DNA of 64,000 bases from Anaeromyxobacter sp. GTDB lineage: Bacteria; Myxococcota; Myxococcia; Myxococcales; Anaeromyxobacteraceae. The position numbers and the translations under genes were made by a program. How positions within the stretch are numbered: position 1 is the stretch's first letter; the number at the start of each line of letters is the position of its first letter. Below, in pieces: positions 11,367 to 52,927 of the stretch. The notes beneath the pieces were generated by a model that saw nothing but the letters and a program-made list of their open reading frames with translations, was not told where the DNA came from and made no database searches. The DNA lies in contig JASGJN010000004.1 in NCBI GenBank assembly GCA_049840735.1, forward strand, positions 185,184 through 249,183. The letters are read 5' to 3'.

Positions 11367-13985
11367 ATGAAGCACGGAGCGTGGAAGACGCTGCTCGCCT
11401 GCATCGCCGGGGTTGCGATGCTGGGGGGCTGCGGCGACGACGAGAGCACGCCGGACTACCAGCTGCACGTCGCCTCGCCGGAATGGCAGGACCAGATCGT
11501 CTACTTCGTCATGACGGACCGGTTCGACGACGGCAACACCGGCAACGACGACCAGGGGGCCGGCGAGTTCGACCGGACCAGCAACGCCAAGTACAGCGGC
11601 GGCGACCTGGCCGGCGTCAAGAACCGGCTCGACTACATCAAGGGGCTGGGCGCCACGGCGGTCTGGATCACCCCGCCGGTCGCGAACCAGTGGTGGGATC
11701 CGCACGTCAACTACGGCGGCTACCACGGCTACTGGGCGCGTGACTTCATGTCGGTCGACAAGCACATGGGCTCGCTCGACGACTACAAGGCGCTCTCCGA
11801 CGCGCTCCACCGCAACAGCATGTACCTGATCCAGGACGTGGTCGTGAACCACATGGCCAACTGCTTCTGGTACGACGGGGACTACGACCCGCTGGACCCG
11901 ACGCTGCACGTGGTCACCAACGGCTCCGCCGCGCCGGCCTGCGGGCCGACCCGCGCGCCGTTCAACCAGTGGAACCCGCTCGACCCGGCGTCGCTCGCGG
12001 CCAAGGTCTTCCACTGGACCCCGTACATCTCCGACTACGCGAACCAGGACCAGGTCTGGAACTACCAGCTCTCCGACCTGGACGACCTCAACACCGAGAC
12101 CCCCGAGGTCGTGGCGGCGCTGAAGGAGCAGTACGCGTACTGGATCTCCACGGTGGGCGTGGACGCCTTCCGCGTGGACACGGCGTTCTACGTCCCGCAG
12201 GACTTCTTCAAGGCCTGGTACCACGACGCGGACGGCATCGACGCCGCCGCGAAGGCCACCGGCCGCGAGGGCTTCCTGGCCTTCGGCGAGGGCTACGCGT
12301 CCGACAATCCCTACGAGACCACGCAGCAGGAGCGGATCGAGTCCTACATGGTGGACGGCCAGGAGCCGGTCCTGCCCTCCATGATCAACTTCCCCATGTA
12401 CCGGACCGCCGGCGACGTCTTCGCCCGCGGGCACCCGACCGCCGAGCTGGGCCACCGCATGGCCTCGGCCGCGGCGCTCCACGGCGCGCGCTGGCACGTC
12501 ATGCCCAGCTTCCTCGACAACCACGACACCGACCGGTTCCTGGCCGGCGGCACGACGGTGGCGCTGCAGCAGGATCTGCTCTTCATGATGACCACCCCCG
12601 GCATCCCGGTCATCTACCAGGGCACCGAGCAGGGCTTCACCGAGCAGCGCGGGTCGATGTTCAAGGGCGGCTTCGGCTCCGGCAACCTCGATCACTTCGA
12701 CCCCACCCACCCGCTCTACCAGTACATCGCGCAGGTCGCGCAGCTCCGGAAGGCCAACCCGGTGCTGAGCCGCGGTGAGCCCACCGTCCTCAAGCAGACC
12801 TCGGGCGCCCCCGGCGCCTTCGTCTACAAGATGGAATACGCCCACGACGGCACCACCGAGACGGCGCTGGTCCTCTTCAACACCGCGGACGCCGAGGTGC
12901 TGGTCGACAACGCCGAGACCGGCCTGGCCGACGGCGCCGTGCTGCACCTGCTCTACTCGCTCAGGCCCGGCGCCACCGAGCTGGTGGCCGGCGCGGGCGG
13001 CAAGCTCACCCTGCCGCTGGGGGCGCGCGAGGCGCGCGTCTACCTCGCCACCGGCGCCACCACCACCGTCCCGACCCCTGGCCACCTGACGCTCACCATC
13101 CCCGGCGGCAGCGAGCAGTCCGGCGACTTCACCGTCAGCGGCACCACCGACGTGGCCGGCGTCGAGCAGGTCAAGATCGTGGTGGACGGCGACCTGGCCC
13201 ATTCGAAGAGCGCGAACGTCGTGGGCGGCGCCTTCTCCGCCACGGTGGACACCAGCGCCATGTTCGACGCGTCGGCGGTCCACACCGTCACCGCCTACAT
13301 CCGCACGGTCAACCTGGCCTCGGAGACCGCCACGTTCACCGTGGACCAGTCCTTCCACGAGCGGGTGAGCTACACCGACCCGACGGGTGACGACCTCGGG
13401 CCGGACGGCACGTACGCCTATCCGACCGACGCCTCGTGGGGGGACCACCGCCAGATGGACATCGAGGGCGTGCAGGTCCTCACCTCCGCCCGCACGCTCC
13501 GGCTGCGCGTGAAGACGCACGACGTGACCGACGACTGGAACCCGCAGAACGGCTTCGACCACGTCTGCTTCAGCGTCTTCATCGACCTGCCTGGCGTCAC
13601 CGGCGCCTCGGTGATGCCGCAGCAGTCCGGGCAGGTGCCGGACGGCTTCAACTGGGACTACAAGGCCCGCGTCCACGGCTGGTCCAACGCGCTCTTCTCC
13701 AGCGCGGGGGCCAGCGACACGGTCGAGGGCACCGCCAGCGCACCGGCCGCCATCGTGTCTGTCGAGCCGGAGGCCGACGTGATCCAGTTCACCTTCCTGC
13801 CCGCCGGCATCGGCAACCCGGCCACCCTGGACGGCGTGAAGATCTACATCACGACCTGGGACTACGACGGCGGGTTCCGCACCTTCACCGAGACGCCGCA
13901 GCCGTGGAACTTCTCCGGCGGCGTCGAGGGCACCGATCCGAAGGTGATGGACGACACCGCGGTGCTCACCATCACGAACGACTAG
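11367..13985 (+). CDS. GH13 alpha-amylase/pullulanase-family lipoprotein with C-terminal glucodextranase-like domain
   Basis: Lipobox LGGC; YFVMTDRFDDG, GYHGYW, DVVVNH, DAFRVDT, FLDNHD; C-terminal DPTGDDLGP...WNPQNGFD. Confidence 0.9.
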   Translation: MKHGAWKTLLACIAGVAMLGGCGDDESTPDYQLHVASPEWQDQIVYFVMTDRFDDGNTGNDDQGAGEFDRTSNAKYSGGDLAGVKNRLDYIKGLGATAVWITPPVANQWWDPHVNYGGYHGYWARDFMSVDKHMGSLDDYKALSDALHRNSMYLIQDVVVNHMANCFWYDGDYDPLDPTLHVVTNGSAAPACGPTRAPFNQWNPLDPASLAAKVFHWTPYISDYANQDQVWNYQLSDLDDLNTETPEVVAALKEQYAYWISTVGVDAFRVDTAFYVPQDFFKAWYHDADGIDAAAKATGREGFLAFGEGYASDNPYETTQQERIESYMVDGQEPVLPSMINFPMYRTAGDVFARGHPTAELGHRMASAAALHGARWHVMPSFLDNHDTDRFLAGGTTVALQQDLLFMMTTPGIPVIYQGTEQGFTEQRGSMFKGGFGSGNLDHFDPTHPLYQYIAQVAQLRKANPVLSRGEPTVLKQTSGAPGAFVYKMEYAHDGTTETALVLFNTADAEVLVDNAETGLADGAVLHLLYSLRPGATELVAGAGGKLTLPLGAREARVYLATGATTTVPTPGHLTLTIPGGSEQSGDFTVSGTTDVAGVEQVKIVVDGDLAHSKSANVVGGAFSATVDTSAMFDASAVHTVTAYIRTVNLASETATFTVDQSFHERVSYTDPTGDDLGPDGTYAYPTDASWGDHRQMDIEGVQVLTSARTLRLRVKTHDVTDDWNPQNGFDHVCFSVFIDLPGVTGASVMPQQSGQVPDGFNWDYKARVHGWSNALFSSAGASDTVEGTASAPAAIVSVEPEADVIQFTFLPAGIGNPATLDGVKIYITTWDYDGGFRTFTETPQPWNFSGGVEGTDPKVMDDTAVLTITND

Positions 13986-14075: not shown

Positions 14076-14126
14076 AGGGGTCGCGTCCTTCTACATTACA
14101 CTTTCGGACCCCGGAGCGGGCGGGCC
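14076..14126 (-). repeat. Junction motif copy 1 (diverged)
   Basis: Reverse complement ggcccgcccgctccggggTCCGAAAGTGTAATGTAGAAGGACGCGACCCCT matches 46296, 48649 and 50313. Confidence 0.85.
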
Positions 14127-46174: not shown

Positions 46175-46295
46175 TCACTACGGGGCGCGGCGAGGACTTA
46201 CCAGTTTCCGGCCAGCCGCACCCACGCACCGCCGGTGCCCCGGCCGCGGTGATGCCGATGGAAGTGGGCTCACACGAGACCGGTGGCGACACAGC

Positions 46296-46358
46296 AAGCC
46301 TGCTGGGCCCGCCCGCGGCCTGCACATCCGAAAGCGTAATGTAGAATGACGCGACCCT
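46296..46358 (+). repeat. Junction motif copy 2
   Basis: aagcctgctgggcccgcccgcggcctgcacatccgaaagcgtaatgtagaatgacgcgaccct. Confidence 0.9.
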
Positions 46359-46993
46359 CCCGCTTTGAGGCTGGGGGCCAGCAGCAAGGGAGCGCGCGCC
46401 TCGCGGCACACCTGCTCCGGCGTCCAGCGCAGGAGGTCCGCGGCGCAGTCCACCACCCTGCGGGCCGCGTGCGCTAGCAGGTTCAGCGTATCCTCGACCC
46501 GGCCGGCCCCCTCCAGCGGCGCCGAGTCGATGGCCACGCGCAGCGTCTTGGGCAGCTTCTTCCAGTCGAACTCCTTGGTGGCCCTCGCCAACTCGACCGT
46601 GCGGTCGAGCAGCCGCCGGTCCATATCGTGGGCGATCAGACGCTCCCTGAAGGCCTGCAATGCACCCTGGGAGAACGGCGGCTCCGTGGCGCCCAGGCAG
46701 CCGAGCACCATCTGCCACCGCAGGGCCATGACCGCCGCCTCGACCGCGTCCGCGTCCGAGAGGCCCAGGTATCCCTGCAGCAGCAACGCCATCGCGAGCT
46801 GGGCCGGTGGCCGGGGATCTGACCCGGCGCCGGTGTCCCGGTACATCGTCTCCCGCTCGCCCTGGAACTGATCGTCAAACAACTCGTGCCGGTGCCTGCG
46901 CAGGAACCCGAAGAGCTTTCGCTTGGTCTCGAGCCGCTTGAGGATGAACTGCTCCTGCTTCGTCGGCTCCCGATTCGGCTTCCACCGCTCCAT
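46359..46993 (-). pseudogene. IS1182/IS5-like transposase, 3'-truncated
   Basis: PPAQLAMALLLQGYLGLSD, RWQMVLG, FRERL, VAIDSAPLEGAGRVEDT; runs into the junction motif. Confidence 0.8.
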
Positions 46994-47116
46994 CCCCGCC
47001 GCCTCCCGCGCGGGCGACAGCCCCCGCGGCGCGCAGAAGTTCACGGCCGCATGGGGGCTGTCGATCCTCGGCGCGTAAGCGATGGGAATCAGGGGCGCTC
47101 CAAGCCGATCGGCGCT

Positions 47117-47572
47117 CTAAGCGTTAGGCCTCCCCAATACGGTCTGCCTATACACAAACATCCTGACAAGCACAATAACAATTAGACCCATTACCAGCCA
47201 CACCGCCAAACGACCCCGATTCGGCAGGAAAAGCTCACGCAATGGCTCACCAGTCGCCCAGGAATCACCCCAACACGTCGCGTACTCCTCAACCACGCAT
47301 CTCGCCGCCAATATCCCCACAGCAACAAACGTCGCGAGACTAAGCCACCATCGGCGCGCGATCGTCACAGCCAACACGAAGTAGACCGCCGCCGGCAGAC
47401 ACGCAAATAGCGAGACATCAAGGTAGATGCTCGCGTCCGAAAGTTCGATCCGGGCAGCGTCGCGGGATCGATAGCGCGAGAAGACCGCCCCCGTGAAGCG
47501 CCGCATCGACAGACGACAGAAAGAGGCTGCACAGAAGAACAATCGCCCCTCCACCAACGCCGGCCGCCGCAC
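47117..47572 (-). CDS. Low-GC membrane hypothetical protein, candidate orphan immunity gene
   Basis: Three hydrophobic segments; atypical composition; start uncertain. Confidence 0.4.
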   Translation of the reverse strand: MRRPALVEGRLFFCAASFCRLSMRRFTGAVFSRYRSRDAARIELSDASIYLDVSLFACLPAAVYFVLAVTIARRWWLSLATFVAVGILAARCVVEEYATCWGDSWATGEPLRELFLPNRGRLAVWLVMGLIVIVLVRMFVYRQTVLGRPNA

Positions 47573-48165
47573 AACGTCCGCCCCAACCGGTTAAGCGCCC
47601 CGTGGACATTCCCATCCGGCCTCCCAACCCGCACGAACTCTGCGGAGACCCTGAATTGCAGAGAGACTATACGAACAGCCACCCACCAAGCGAACAGCCC
47701 CGCCTCACTCACAGAACATCTGCCACGATCAGCGGCTGCAACTGGACGATAACCGCCCCCCCCCGTCTAGCGAGTTAGTGCGAAGGCCCTTCAGAGCGGT
47801 CCGCGCGTCGCCACCACACATTCAGGCCACATCGGCCTTGGGGCGGGAAGAGCGCGCTCCCACGCCACGTCCGACACCCCTCGATCGCTGCCAAGCCCAT
47901 CGGTCGAACGCCAGCGGCATTCGTCCACGCTCACGCGCCAGCACTTCCGAGCGCGATCTTCCCTCGCATCACCAGGAACGCTTGCGCCTCGTCGCCCATG
48001 GCCCCCATGACCCCTTGCGGCTTCCGCAGCTGATGAGGGCTGATTGGTCCCTTCTGGCGCAGGACTCGGCAAAGCATTCGGTCGGAACACCCACCAACCG
48101 GCGGGCTTATCTTCCGGCGAACCACCAAGCGCAGGAAGATAGGTCGCTCCCTCCGGGTTCCAGGC

Positions 48166-48648
48166 CAGACCCGATCCGCGCTGATGCGTGTTGAGCTTCG
48201 CCACCATCGCGGCGCCGCTCTCGCAGCGACGGGACGTACGTCGCCCAGCGGCGTCGCCGCGGGACGGGTCATGCTGTCTGCGCGCAATGAAGAAGGGGCG
48301 CCGGCTGCGAGGAGGGACATCTTCACCTCACGACGCCGTCGCGCTCCTCCACGAGGCCGCGCTCCGGCGGCATGCGCGACCGTTCGACCGCCTCGCCACC
48401 GGCTGCTTCCGCGAGGCCGCTCGCCGCAAGCGCAAGCTCGTCGAGCGCGACCTCCTGCCCCGGGTCCTCGACCGTGACGGCCTGGAGCGCGACGGGTGAC
48501 GTCTCCGCGGCTCGGCTGGCTCAGGCCATCACGGCCGTGCGCGGAACCCGCTCACCGGCGCGGTGGACACCAGCCAGCCGGGCCGCAGTTCCATCAACCA
48601 GCTTGCGCGGCAACACCAGCGAGATCGGGTCAGCGGGAATCAGGTCTG
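48166..48648 (-). mobile_element. Non-autonomous ISAs1 derivative (MITE-like, ~483 bp)
   Basis: 48166-48305 matches the IS right end 42660-42798 inverted; 48627-48648 equals the left TIR. Confidence 0.75.
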
Positions 48649-48701
48649 GCCCGCCCGCGGCCTGAATATCCGAAAGTGTAATGTAGGATGACGCGACCCC
48701 T
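48649..48701 (+). repeat. Junction motif copy 3 (5' clipped by ISAs1 TIR)
   Basis: gcccgcccgcggcctgaatatccgaaagtgtaatgtaggatgacgcgacccct. Confidence 0.9.
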
Positions 48702-50118
48702 ACCCCACTTACGTAGAACGCGCCGCGGTACTCGATGGCGGCCGTCCGGAGCCCGGCAGAGTCGTAGCGGTACTCCGTCACCCGCCCTCGGCGCTGAGCA
48801 CGAACCGGAGCAGGCCGCGCTGGGCAGCGTCGCGGACGTAGCGGGTGGTGAGCGGCTGGGTGGCACCGGCGCCGGCGTGGGCCGACTCGGTGAGGAGCTG
48901 GTTGCGCGCGTCGTAGGTGCGCTCCAGCGTGTTGCCCGCCGCGTCCACCTGCCGGAGCAGGTTGCCGCTGGCGTCGTAGGTCATGGCCACCGTGCGGCCC
49001 AGGCCATCGACGATGGAGGCCACGTCGCCGAGCGCCGTGTAGGCGTAGTCGAGCCGCGTGCGGCCGGCCGGGTTGCCGGCGGTGACCCCGCTCCGGACCT
49101 GCGTCAGCTGCCCCTTGGCGTCGTGCTGGTAGACCGTGGCGACGCCCAGCGGGTCGGTGACGGTGGTCCTGCCGGCCGCGGCGTCGTAGGCGAACTGGGT
49201 CACCTTCCCTTCACCGTCGGTGACCGAGGCGACCTTGTAGAGGCCGTCCAGCAGCACGTAGGTGAAGCTGAGCGTGGTGCCGTCGCCCTGGGTGAGGCCG
49301 GCGACGCGGTTGCTGGTGCCGTCGTAGGCGTAGGTCGTCTTGAAGACCGTCCCCGTCTCGCCCGCCGCCACCGCAGCCAGGCTGCGCGGATTCAGGACCA
49401 CGCTGACCGACTCGAGCCGGTTGAGCGCGTCGTAGCCGTAGGAGACGTCCAGGACCGTGAGCGCGCCATCGATCGAGAGCACCGTGCGGACCTCGAGCAG
49501 GTTGCGCCCGCTCGGCCCACCGTAGGTGAAGGTGATCGACTCCCCGCTGGCGCTGCTGATGCGCGTGAGCAGGTTGGAGGCGTCGTAGCCGTAGGTGAGC
49601 GCGTTCCCGCTCGCGTCCACCGAGGTCAGGATCCGCCCGAAGCTCCCCGCCTGGTAGGTCTCACGCCCGCCCGAGGCGCCGTCCGTCCAGGTGTAGGTCC
49701 CGTCCGCATTGACGACGATGGCATCGCGCGCCGAGCCCGCCGTGACCGAGGCCAGGTAGGCCTGCCGGGTCGCGTCCCAGGGATAGTCGCAGAACGAGCC
49801 GTCCGCGTCATGCCGCCGCAGCTTCCCGCCGCCCAGGTCCTCGATGGCCCGCGTCGGCGCGCCCTGCCAGCCGTCGGCGTTGCCGTCGAAGTCGTAGCCT
49901 CCCTGGCTGTTGTAGGTGCGCAGCGCCGCCGCATCCGGCCCCCGCCCCGCCAGCAGCACGTCGGCGCGCTGCAGGACCAGGTTGCCGGTGAACGCGTTGA
50001 CGTAGGCCCGCTCGCCGCCCTGCCCCTGTGTCGCCGAGCCCGACTGCCCCCGCAGACCGAGCGCGGAGAGCGAGCTGAGGTAGAGGCCGAGCGAATTCCC
50101 CGAGAACACCGCGACCAT
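48702..50118 (-). pseudogene. Orphan N-terminal fragment of a giant YD-repeat protein
   Basis: MVAVFSGNSLGL...YVNAFTGNLVLQ...RTYNSQG then YD repeats; -1 slip at ~48782; ends in the junction motif. Confidence 0.85.
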
Positions 50119-50312
50119 GCGTCACCCGTAGCCACCGCGCGCGGACGGGTCCGCCAGGTCAGGTCTGGCGGGCGGTCACGGGTGGTATGGGTTATCCGCG
50201 GGGTGGAGAGGGAGTTAAGCGAATGCCCCATCAGGGGTGTCACGGCTGGCTCCCTGCGAGTTCTCGCCCCAGGCGGGGAGCGCCTGCACGAGGGGCGTCG
50301 CCTTGTCCCAGG

Positions 50313-50376
50313 AAGCCTGCTGGGCCCGCCCGCGGCCTGCATATCCGAAAGTGTAATGTAGGATGACGCGACCCCT
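50313..50376 (+). repeat. Junction motif copy 4
   Basis: aagcctgctgggcccgcccgcggcctgcatatccgaaagtgtaatgtaggatgacgcgacccct. Confidence 0.9.
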
Positions 50377-51645
50377 CCCCCCCCGGTGGTGCGGGTCGAG
50401 CAGTTCGACCCCCCATCCTCGGAGGAAGCTCGTCGCGGATGGGAAGGCCGAGCGGTTCGGGTTCGAGTCGAGAGCCCCCCGAAAGGTGGCCCTGGCAGCG
50501 CGGCGGCGCGCGCGTGCTCGAGCACGCCCGGGCGAAGTACCGGGTGGTCGACCCGAACGGCGACTCGATGATCGAGACGACGCCGATGCCGCCCGAAGTG
50601 CTTCCCGCGCTCGCTGGCGGCGCCATCGCTCCTGGCGCACATCCTCACCGACAAGTTCTGCGACGGGCTCCCCGCTCCACCGCATCGAGAACCGGCTCGC
50701 CCGGGAGGGCTTCCACCTCCGACCGCGGGACGATGAGCCGGTGGGTCGAGGACGCGGGGGCGACCGCTGGCGCGACGGTGGATCGAGGCCGCGCGCGACG
50801 AGGCGTGGCGCACCGCCTTCTGGTCATCGCCACCGGAAAGACGCGACCCGGGATCCCCGGGTCCAGCCCGGAGGCCGCGCGAGGGACGGCAAGCACCAGC
50901 CCTGCCACCGGGGCCACTACTTCGTCCAAATCGCCGACCGCGATCACATCTTCTTCGAGTACGCGCGCAAGGAGACCAGCGCGACGCTGCTGGAGATGTT
51001 CGAGGGGTATTCGGGGTACATCCAGGCAGACGCCAAGAGCGTCTACGACGTGCTCTTCCGCGAGCCGGGACCAAGCCGCCCGAGGACGGCGAGGTGGGAC
51101 ACTTCCGGGTCGAGCGTTCGGACTGCTGGTCCCCCAACAACGCGCGACGGGAAGTTCTGGGAGGCAACCTGCACGAAGAGCGAGGTCGCCCGCGAGGGAT
51201 TGGCGCGCATCGGGTACGTGTTCGCGCTCGATGCACTTCTGGCGAAATGATCCGGCCCGGAGACCATCCTGCGCCAGCGTAGTCAGCGCCTGCGCGTGCA
51301 CCTGGTCGACTTCTTCGCCTGGGCCGAGGCGGAGTACGAGCGCGTCCGCGATCAGCGCGGGCTCGTTCCGCTCGGCGCTCCGGCTACGCCGTCCGGCAGA
51401 AGGACGCGCTCATGCGCGTGCTCGAGGACGGGCGGCTACCAGCTCGAGAACAACCGTCTCGGAGCGGCGAGCTGCGCAGGGTCGCCGTCGGCAGGAAGAG
51501 CTGGCTCTTCGTCGGCAGCCACGACCACGGCGAGGCCGCCGGCCACATCCTGTCCCTCGTCGCCTCGGCCCGGCTGCACCGGCTCGACCCCGAGGCCTAC
51601 CTGCGCGCACCTCTTCCGCGTCCTGGCCCACTGGCCGCGCGACCG
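50377..51645 (+). pseudogene. IS66 TnpC, 5'-truncated and frameshifted
   Basis: PLHRIE, RGTMSRW, YSGYIQADAKSVYD, LRRVAVGRKSWLFVGS, LDPEAYL. Confidence 0.85.
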
Positions 51646-51727
51646 CAGAGGCGAGCGGGGCGTCATCTTCCCGTACGGCACCTACCTGATGCGCGTCCGG
51701 TTCGGGGCGGCCTGCGGCGGCGGCTGA
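51645..51727 (+). pseudogene. Possible C-terminal tip of a Y1/RAYT-like HUH transposase
   Basis: RRGERGVIFPYGTYLMRVRFGAACGGG* resembles the FP.GTY.M tail recalled from myxobacterial REP-associated tyrosine transposases; very short. Confidence 0.4.
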
Positions 51728-52222: not shown

Positions 52223-52927
52223 CTATGAATCGTCCAGCAGGTGCTTCGCTTCCAGCGCCCTCTTCAGGCTCTTTAGCCCTGCCAGGGTCACAGGGTCATT
52301 CGCGACGGGTAGGTGGCCCCGGGGCTGAATGAAGACGCCCTCCGCATCCGGCTCGCAAACAAAGCCTTCAGGAAGAGATTCGATAGCCGGTGCCTTTCGG
52401 ATATACGTCAGATAGCCGACAGCCCGGGTATCGAGGGCAGATATCAGCGATAGCGTGGTGACAGCGCCACCGTCAGCACGCCAATGCTTGACGCTGGCCT
52501 TGAATGCGCGAGCCACCGCTTCCAGCCCCGGCTCCCCGCCGACATACTCGATCTCCGCCATACTCGCGCCGCCATCGGCGGCGAAGATACTTATCATCCT
52601 CGCCGCATCCGACTCGGCAGCCGCGTCGGACAGCATGTTCGTGAACGCCATGGGCGCCGTAGTCATGGGATGAAACCGGTCGCCCGAGCCCTCCGGATGA
52701 CAGAAGGCCCATTCAGGAGGCTGCCCCTCGGCGAGCAGGGATCCGAACCCGCCACGGTCAAACGGCAGCCGCGCCCACGACCCCTTCGACTTGATCCGCA
52801 CAAACGCGACGTCCTGAAACTCCGGCAGGCCAAGGTATCCCGAAACCCAGGCCGCGTACTCGCCCCATCGAACAGGCCGATCGCGCCACCAGACCATCGC
52901 TCGAACGACATCCAGGTACTCAGTCAT
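52223..52927 (-). CDS. Immunity protein, Imm52-like
   Basis: Directly downstream of the toxin tip; lower GC; WWRDRP N-terminus and AVGYLTY...LPEG...GVFI C-terminus. Confidence 0.65.
   Translation of the reverse strand: MTEYLDVVRAMVWWRDRPVRWGEYAAWVSGYLGLPEFQDVAFVRIKSKGSWARLPFDRGGFGSLLAEGQPPEWAFCHPEGSGDRFHPMTTAPMAFTNMLSDAAAESDAARMISIFAADGGASMAEIEYVGGEPGLEAVARAFKASVKHWRADGGAVTTLSLISALDTRAVGYLTYIRKAPAIESLPEGFVCEPDAEGVFIQPRGHLPVANDPVTLAGLKSLKRALEAKHLLDDS

Follow-up and report, generated by a model that had tools for sequence, protein, structure and literature searches.

The closest described relatives of the system discussed here are the TIRYT enzymes, which were reported together with their two-ended elements, the TIRtrons, and with families of TIR repeats (Di Nocera et al., 2013, PMC3733652) and correspond to subclass 2.1.2 of the TnpA-Y1 proteins (Quentin et al., 2018, bioRxiv 10.1101/279083). 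Subclass 2.1 was found in 14.9% of strains and is among the commoner Y1 subclasses (bioRxiv 279083). In the accessible text of these papers, a GGGGWSAS tip is common to some or most TIRs, not to all, and TIRs also occur dispersed, as single, dimeric or grouped repeats (PMC3733652; bioRxiv 10.1101/279083); the same text says nothing of a mechanism, of where the cut falls, of one-ended units in nested form, of contact with stop codons or of any activity assay. A literature search, in which subscription papers were mostly uncovered, returned among the matches listed nothing on these ends beyond Di Nocera and Quentin, the two works in the collection searched that use the name TIRYT, and nothing that links RAYT-type enzymes to Rhs loci. 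In RAYT/REP systems, according to the available portions of the publications, the repeats form hairpins with a GTAG tag, and cleavage at C|T (or CA) is guided by this tetranucleotide (Ton-Hoang et al., PMC3333891; Corneloup et al., PMC8266576), and nicking, 3'-OH priming and rejoining have been proposed to amplify the repeats and to capture their flanks (Ton-Hoang et al., PMC3333891).

The motif, its family and its enzyme

The motif studied here is the terminal inverted repeat (TIR), of ~32 bp, of a TIRYT/TIRtron, that is, of a RAYT-related enzyme of the HUH-Y1 class with an HTH at its C-terminus, and the window, by which we mean the whole 64,000-nucleotide stretch of Anaeromyxobacter sp. DNA analysed, holds four orphan TIRtron ends. 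What the first-pass annotation had taken for a new one-ended element is one end of an element already described as two-ended. The 31-nt core does lie at the four places then reported, at 14078-14108 on the minus strand and at 46327-46357, 48669-48699 and 50344-50374 on the plus strand, with a chance expectation of 0 (100 shuffles). Annotated as TIRs with a 32-nt core, the last three are 46327..46358 (minus strand; family A, with a GGGGTC-type tip on the minus strand whose first base is altered), 48669..48700 (minus strand; family C) and 50344..50375 (minus strand; family B, in what is the ancestral setting, ahead of an RHS start). The fourth is a dispersed solo TIR at 14077..14108 (plus strand), intergenic and separated by 91 nt from the stop of an intact convergent ORF of 872 codons (11367-13985), so that no gene is truncated at this copy, first placed at 14076. 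By PWM the genome (G000) holds 34 copies, 33 of them at 16 bits or more, with a single match in the reversed-genome control; besides the TIRtron pair there are 32, 12 in two RHS loci and 20 dispersed. Of the 61 related genomes searched, G000 alone had the exact motif, which was found in 0 metagenome and viral contigs, Rfam gave 0 matches for 45-52 kb of the window, and the repeat showed no significant hairpin fold in 5/5 strands tested (z -1.1 to +1.5).

An intact two-ended element is present at G000:C17:604543-605629, and the gene within it encodes an HUH-Y1 enzyme with a C-terminal HTH, which bears out the earlier expectation that the cognate enzyme would be of the HUH class. This TIRYT gene (G000:C17:604621-605535, minus strand; 305 aa; Y1_Tnp, PF01797, E 2e-9) is bracketed by outward-facing relatives of the motif, which score 46 and 36 bits by PWM and agree with the window cores at 21-25/32 positions, and is the sole intact gene bracketed by PWM copies in the genome. 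Its catalytic residues H60, H62 and Y119 are invariant across 31 sequences, and its AF2 model (pLDDT 90) has its best fold match in TnpA-REP (4ER8, E 1e-7). The C-terminal domain, helical in the model, gives a weak Sigma70_r4_2 match (E 5e-4) and a fold match to the DnaA DNA-binding domain (3pvp; TM 0.73 on target, E 0.013), while positions 216-305 of the homologue HMM match a DnaA-like C-terminus at C21, DnaA being recognised by eye. By eye, the TIRtron has no matching flanks that would indicate a target duplication. Its own TIRs differ at positions 7-10 from the dominant dispersed type, to which 29/34 copies belong, and given this mismatch the copies may have as their cognate enzyme a paralog that was lost or is missing from the assembly; no second gene of TIRYT length was found in the genome, the assembly being 94% complete. 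The motif had been said to lack an inverted partner end, which is true near the dispersed copies, where a search up to 4 kb inward of all 20 gave no TIR-like GGGGTC partner and just two unrelated 7-mer matches, but not of the parent element at C17, which has one.

TIR sequences diverge among homologues, the PWM matching just 4/80 homologous loci, and de novo pairing, used instead, places an outward TIR pair around the gene in 57/77 examinable loci. Two of these homologous loci, L020 and L021, bear the window-type GGGGTCGC variant at one end, and the tip agrees with the published GGGGWSAS at 7/8 positions in window copies and TIRtron ends alike. The TIRtron and its homologues largely refute the reading of the motif as the end of some other element, whether the TIR of a DDE IS, the ori end of an IS91/ISCR, an integron/Xer site or the 3' end of a retroelement, which we find barely credible. 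Stacking with one fixed and one variable end would likewise be expected of IS91/ISCR and of target-primed reverse transcription, and one RT is encoded in the genome, but Y1 is the sole gene bracketed by the motif. The specific candidates tried gave these results. The one RT, an RT-trypsin fusion at C4:75-77 kb, is unlinked. An integron-like system would call for an integrase and for whole-gene cassettes, each with its own site; no integrase was found over the TIGR02249 cut-off, and the units consist of pieces of genes that vary in length. A DDE IS with a second end and a target duplication, which the first-pass annotation had set against its own reading, is not what is found here, there being no DDE gene between two ends and, by eye, no target duplication at the TIRtron, and Y1 being the only intact bracketed gene. 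For a RAYT/REP element (REPtron), there is no GTAG-tagged hairpin, and the gene is flanked by TIRs. PF04986 (Y2_Tnp) had no match in G000, a weak result since its control matched nowhere, and no Y2 gene lies beside the copies examined.

Joints in the window and in the two RHS loci

The neighbours of copies A, C and B are those originally named, a DUF772 fragment of an IS1182-like element, the N-terminus of a YD/RHS gene and a fragment of IS66 TnpC (Pfam), and each of these broken neighbours has a longer copy in the genome (91% to C13/C14, 94% to C17 and 93% to C25, respectively). The bases that follow the motif belong to the broken neighbour. The abrupt single end holds in so far as similarity ends near the tip, but not at one fixed nucleotide: donor homology begins 4, 12 and 7 nt past the last C in copies A, C and B, and short C-rich tails beyond the tip are common to several copies. 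At copy A the 5' part of the IS1182-like element (DUF772; 46362..47119, minus strand) breaks 4 nt outside the TIR tip, and the inner flank (46221..46326, minus strand) has 67 nt in common with family B before an IS-like end, and 138-142 nt in common with C17:350051-350192. The inner flank of copy C (48608..48668, minus strand) has ~21 nt in common with families A/B, followed by a DDE_Tnp_1 IS end that we take to be ISAs1-like, and 93 nt from the tip in common with C17:373449; its tail from tip to breakpoint (48701..48711, minus strand) is partly common to other family-C copies. Unit B (48712..50384, minus strand) comprises the TIR, the upstream region and the first ~470 codons of the YD/RHS gene, cut short at copy C, and has 94% identity over 1,675 nt with the 5' end of a long RHS gene (C17:347262-348922); judging from this alignment, unit 48712-50384 could be an old RHS paralog shortened by deletion, not transposed cargo. 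Beyond copy B, a 5'-truncated IS66 TnpC fragment (50382..51646, plus strand) breaks 7 nt outside the tip, with a GGG microhomology. The context, outside the element, includes a giant, frameshifted YD/RHS-LysM gene that runs to the contig end (52996..64000, minus strand) and whose predicted product is a probable interbacterial toxin. Head-to-tail units of the kind proposed as tandem cargo plus motif do occur, but the DNA they carry is on the inner side (upstream, plus strand).

Flank comparison traces the 12 copies beside two RHS genes to one insertion, of which the founding copy lies 213 nt upstream of an RHS start. Inward of the tip these copies have 22, 53-56, 67, 74, ~85, 93, 138, ~252, 280-323 and 1,664 nt in common, and outward at most 18 nt. 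The homology block begins 2-14 nt outside the tip in 7/12 copies (chance 3.1-3.6%, p 5e-8), the other five having unique outer flanks and hence not being scorable for breakpoints; TIR joints make up 7/74 of the block-start clusters in the two loci, where most joints lie elsewhere. The TIR end acts one-sidedly despite belonging to a two-ended element. The active strand-transfer end first suggested is accordingly retained as regards this one-sidedness, seen in nested variable inner flanks, breakpoints just outside the tip and head-to-tail units, while the enzyme is presumed to make the joints. The ends could instead be passive, REP-like singlets of TIRYT origin that were later copied by IS-mediated or homologous rearrangement, with joints and stutters owed to host repair, or to slippage at the G-run or at a TIR-bound protein. 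The 1-5 nt microhomologies at the joints are consistent with this, as are the crowding of the loci with IS66, IS3, IS21-like, IS1182 and DDE_Tnp_1 pieces, the many block ends not at TIRs, and the derivation of families A and C from the insertion of ordinary IS ends at 53-67 nt inside the TIR. Copies carried along in larger segments ought, however, to have long common outer flanks, and 0/12 do; we consider such passivity unlikely.

In its strongest form, the first-pass annotation amounts to a dedicated system that shuffles cassettes and so remodels the locus of the polymorphic toxin. An enrichment near RHS genes is seen, with 12/32 non-TIRtron copies concentrated downstream of two of them in 0.63% of the genome; the founding copy lies ahead of an RHS start, RHS 5' pieces (259 and 1,664 nt) recur with it, and the C17 copies flank low-GC accessory ORFs. 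This enrichment nevertheless represents one event, because the 12 copies stem from one insertion, and no RHS match was found in 94 + 57 related loci (flanks mostly 1.5-3 kb). Four other YD N-terminal paralogs and an IS-rich RHS neighbourhood at C22 are without a TIR, a duplicated toxin-tip module (C17:354233-357105) stops at an IS66 end and not at a TIR, and it is 5' ends and IS fragments that move; the two copies facing inward at C17:362346-364100 enclose nothing but IS fragments. At the TIR joints, neither a toxin C-terminus nor an immunity gene was found to have been transferred, and shuffling of the toxin locus thus finds no support; a dedicated system appears very unlikely, and on present evidence the link of the TIR to the toxin locus is one of local damage.

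Duplications across the tip and contact with stop codons

Across genomes, perfect tandem duplications spanning the tip occur at 47/269 TIR ends vs 14/3,869 non-TIR GGGGTC sites, 24 of the 47 coming from the single genome G061. Their starts fall at -9..-4 from the tip in 42/47 cases (mode -8), in otherwise unrelated sequences, this zone being partly built into the test at short periods (control, 9/14 in the zone); with periods of at least 14 nt, 22/27 are in the zone (22 counted by hand) vs 7.7 expected. The starts track the distance from the tip, with no visible dinucleotide. Were the ends passive, neither the scarcity of stutters at non-TIR GGGGTC sites nor the clustering of starts by tip distance in unrelated sequences would be expected. 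From the clustered breakpoints and duplication starts together, a nick at a set distance outside the tip can be predicted, followed by RAYT-like extend-and-rejoin chemistry. Stacking that begins at a fixed point and ends variably recurs in unrelated assemblies, which also speaks against the joints being assembly artefacts, chimeric long-read contigs around repeats. RHS genes do have many frameshifts, several contigs, including that of the window, end in RHS repeats, and the motif is in no independent assembly, but the copies differ by substitutions (88-99% identity) and have family-specific tails, and we hold an artefact to be extremely improbable.

The dispersed copies are found in a different setting, 13/20 lying within -1..+1 nt of a convergent stop vs 0.3% of tolerated positions. 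The genes whose stops abut these 13 look complete, and intact neighbours, which together with variable ends had been named as speaking against the original reading, are in this part of the set what is observed. Elsewhere such contact is seen in 4/15 copies in G064, 5/19 in G009 and G008, 2/27 in the metagenome and 0/42 in G061. A pure TAG target preference may be the cause of the contact; TA|G copies are at real stops in 10/13 cases vs 11% of tolerated TAG sites, a comparison in which gene calls cover 72% of the genome and which, assuming 45%, gives p = 0.02. The GGGGTC strand is the G-rich strand in 15/20 dispersed copies, a weak bias (p 0.02, or 0.13 allowing for gene orientation). Contact with a stop also means a joint exactly at the tip, and a nick 5-9 nt outside would need further trimming to fit.

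Proposed mechanism and comparison with described systems

The best overall explanation, and on sequence grounds a probable one, is that the orphan ends were made by a TIRYT through distance-set nicking and rejoining. The TIRYT would bind the TIR, probably as double-stranded DNA via the HTH, since the repeat forms no hairpin, and would nick the GGGGTC-reading strand ~5-9 nt outside the tip, the distance and not the sequence being set. The tyrosine would remain linked to the 5' end bearing tail and TIR, and this end would then be joined to a free 3'-OH. A 3'-OH first extended along the TIR would yield a head-to-tail copy that starts at a fixed point and ends at a variable one, and a 3'-OH further out or elsewhere an adjacent deletion or an ectopic unit of TIR plus inner flank. 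The same chemistry figures in the published model of BIME amplification by TnpA-REP, as given in the section consulted (PMC3333891 Fig. 7B). Where the outer DNA is dispensable, as in the IS-littered tails of the two RHS loci, a single founding insertion ahead of an RHS gene could have given rise to the 12 copies at broken-gene joints; where it is a needed gene, copies would settle at the stop codon of that gene, as in a stop-codon ratchet.

The locus and its relatives yield predictions for the strand of the cut, for its position (~5-9 nt outside the tip, mode 8) and for its products (fixed-start, variable-end duplications and adjacent deletions), and with a prediction so concrete the TIRYT mechanism is directly testable. 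If true, an HUH cut that is set by distance, independent of sequence and guided by a repeat with protein bound to it would differ from those of IS200/IS605 and RAYT. A broader reading, which we regard as decidedly doubtful, would see in TIRYT a ruler-type HUH recombinase, with an HTH-bound non-hairpin repeat, a distance-set cut in any sequence and a single end joined to arbitrary 3' ends, and in the orphan TIRs portable one-ended diversifiers that the host keeps beside polymorphic toxin genes, here by copying an RHS upstream region and N-terminus to new places in the toxin/immunity array.

Among described systems, IS200/IS605 has in common with the present one the HUH-Y1 core and the weak G-rich-strand bias of the GGGGTC strand, but its elements end in asymmetric hairpins and lack both TIRs and the HTH extension. 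IS91/ISCR elements, in which a Y2 enzyme gene lies next to the ori end and transposition is one-ended and of the rolling-circle type, are alike in having one fixed and one variable end and in carrying adjacent DNA, whereas here the enzyme is a Y1, distant from the copies, with two inverted ends around its own gene. RAYT/TnpA-REP systems resemble it in fold (4ER8), in their single enzyme gene and in their many intergenic repeats, and differ in that the repeat here has no significant hairpin and duplication starts follow tip distance. The likeness is greatest to TIRYT/TIRtron, with a RAYT-like HUH-Y1 bearing a C-terminal HTH between inverted repeats that start with a GGGG-type tip, and with TIRs that are also scattered as a moderately abundant family without a REP hairpin; the difference is that the dispersed copies of G000 are singlets or direct stacks, dimers being found in G009 and G064.

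The TIR family and its Y1 enzyme

The 31-nt core of the motif is present four times in the window and absent from 100 shuffles. One copy lies on the minus strand at 14078-14108, and three are clustered on the plus strand at 46327, 48669 and 50344, where the next sequence is an IS1182-like DUF772 fragment, a YD/RHS N-terminus and an IS66 TnpC fragment, respectively, all three being pieces of longer sequences found elsewhere in the source genome (G000, GC 74%). The window corresponds to G000:C4:185184-249183; its end is the contig end and falls inside a frameshifted RHS gene. A PWM scan retrieved 34 copies in the genome, with one in the reversed-genome control; two surround a single gene, 12 lie in two RHS-downstream regions (three in the window and nine at C17:348-374 kb) and 20 are dispersed. 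No significant hairpin was detected in the motif by a folding test.

The genome has six Y1_Tnp matches. One of them, a 305-aa gene at C17:604621-605535, lies between two relatives of the motif that face outward; these terminal inverted repeats (TIRs) are identical to the window cores at 21-25 of 32 positions. Its protein retains H60, H62 and Y119, all invariant across 31 aligned sequences, its closest relatives are from myxobacteria, which suggests a myxobacterial host, and its AF2 model (pLDDT 90) contains a DnaA-like HTH and has TnpA-REP (4ER8) as best match. TIRs with this type of GG(G/T)GTC tip form a pair at 57 of the 77 examinable loci among 80 homologous Y1 loci. The motif and the C17 gene belong to the TIRYT/TIRtron family, described in PMC3733652 and classified as subclass 2.1.2 in bioRxiv 279083; the one-ended element that the first-pass annotation took for novel is thus a TIR of a known, little-studied family, of which the G000 TIRYT is a new representative. 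In the genus survey, the TIRYT protein was found in 3 of 37 genomes and a looser TIR pattern in five, one of them by a single weak match.

Other elements were also seen. A different Y1 gene has three near-identical copies (C7:245.0-245.8 kb, C12:95.2-96.3 kb and C2:170.1-171.2 kb; L003, L004 and L006) with one sharp upstream boundary in common. An inverted match of 15 nt is present about 1.1 kb away at C12 and at C2, so that this resembles another Y1 element that is bounded by TIRs and moves whole. At C4:74.9-76.5 kb (L129:388-2049, minus strand), a reverse transcriptase carries a C-terminal trypsin-like protease fusion, an architecture we take to be retron-like. In another genome, the island at G017:C1:465.8-476.1 kb (L100) holds several TIRs and a recombinase fragment; two of the TIRs face inward about 8.5 kb apart with accessory genes between them, possibly a composite unit.

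One-sided flank sharing at the RHS loci

On the GGGGTC strand, the 12 RHS-locus copies have nested lengths of inner sequence in common (22, 53-56, 67, 74, ~85, 93, 138, ~252, 280-323 and 1,664 nt), and at most 18 nt of outer sequence beyond the GGGGTC tip, where BLAST found no shared flank in 600 nt. A homology block starts 2-14 nt outside the tip in 7 of the 12 (chance 3.1-3.6%), the other five having unique flanks in which such a start is unscorable; the joints show 1-5 nt of microhomology and short G-rich tails, and C17:350051-350569 is a head-to-tail stack of four units, 30, 90, 259 and at least 138 nt long. From the sharing, the block starts and the stacking it follows that the fixed end proposed at the motif is real, albeit a zone, and that it is the inner flank that moves along with the TIR; with a Y1 enzyme between TIRs, the proposed HUH-type, one-sided end was borne out as well.

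All 12 copies trace to one context, a family-B TIR (that of window 50344) lying 213 nt ahead of an RHS start, and families A and C (window 46327 and 48669) arose from IS ends landing 67 and 53-56 nt inside the TIR. The window unit 48712-50384 likewise consists of a TIR with its inner flank and matches the C17 RHS 5' end at 94% identity; this may be a transposed piece, or an older paralog shortened at the next TIR. At C17:362346-364100, IS scraps lie between two family-C TIRs that point inward, with inverted arms of 323 bp; this looks like a two-ended pseudo-element of recent origin or the outcome of an inversion. The joints in the RHS loci could be misassemblies, and no second assembly containing them was found among the related genomes, metagenome and viral contigs searched; such an origin is unlikely because the copies differ from one another by substitutions and the same stacking recurs in unrelated assemblies. 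At least four contig ends (C4 end, C11 start, C19 end and C22 start) lie inside giant, highly similar YD/RHS genes.

The C17 array has two different C-terminal tips and is probably a polymorphic-toxin array with probable immunity ORFs, roles judged from position and composition. The proposed shuffling of toxin cassettes by the motif is not supported: the duplicated toxin-tip module terminates at an IS66 end, TIR joints account for 7 of the 74 block-start clusters in the two RHS loci, no TIR lies upstream of four other YD N-terminal paralogs, and searches of 94 and 57 related loci, whose flanks were short, gave no RHS match. That 12 of 32 copies fall within 0.63% of the genome reflects a single founding event, amplified locally. 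Within C17:349-376 kb, an IS3 copy interrupts an orphan RHS C-terminal module, and probable immunity ORFs and a fragment of a colicin E5-like RNase (PF12106, E 8e-6) are also present. The RHS-downstream region of the window has low-GC ORFs without a Pfam match (47117-47712 and 52223-52927), possibly immunity genes.

Dispersed copies at stop codons

Thirteen of the 20 dispersed copies sit -1 to +1 nt from a convergent gene's stop codon, whereas 0.3% of tolerated positions do so, and the stop contacted is TAG in 12 of the 13 (31% genome-wide). A Pfam match was found in 12 of 14 abutting proteins scanned, and since several matches extend to the end of the profile or one position short of it (AdoHcyase 299/299, aldose epimerase 299/299, PlsY 164/164, Cys/Met 381/381, DUF1844 75/76), these genes do not look truncated. 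Such contact is rarer elsewhere: 4/15 in G064, 5/19 in G009 and G008, 2/27 at metagenome loci (one of them a joint also present in G009) and 0/42 in G061. Our preferred reading is a ratchet, in which outward deletions from the tip would pile up until a needed gene halts them; a preference for TA|G targets, with selection acting as a filter, is a possible alternative. Several solo TIRs (for example C11:122854, C25:103619 and C26:24073) have members of an abundant REP-like repeat family 10-45 nt away on their inner side.

Tip duplications and a predicted cut zone

Of 269 TIR ends, 47 have a perfect tandem duplication (period 8-60) across the tip (24/97 in G061, 6/27 at metagenome loci, 14/111 in homologous TIRtrons and 3/34 in G000), compared with 14 of 3,869 non-TIR GGGGTC sites. 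The duplications at TIR ends extend inward over variable lengths and start 4-9 nt outside the tip in 42 of the 47 (mode 8), in unrelated surroundings, although short periods land in this zone partly by definition (9 of 14 in the control); for periods of at least 14 nt, 22 of 27 fall in the zone against 7.7 expected, 18 of these 27 being from one genome. The G061 loci (L160-L206) contain 140 TIR copies, many in direct arrays, and a 69-bp period recurs there though the inside sequence differs between loci, which suggests a second length rule.

The duplication pattern is as expected if the GGGGTC strand were nicked outside the tip, the 3'-OH extended, and the extended end then attacked the tyrosine-linked 5' end, giving a tandem duplication; such nick-extend-rejoin steps correspond to the BIME amplification model in Fig. 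7B of PMC3333891. A nick 5-9 nt outside would require further trimming to give joints exactly at the tip, such as those of the dispersed copies that touch stop codons. Literature searches found no activity data for the TIRYT enzyme family; the analysis predicts, in a form that can be tested, which strand the enzyme would cut, in which zone and with what products. In TnpA-REP, according to PMC8266576, the cut site is C|T or CA, chosen by a guide tetranucleotide, whereas no dinucleotide rule is visible at the starts of the 47 tip duplications, which suggests that the TIRYT cut would be placed by a distance rule.
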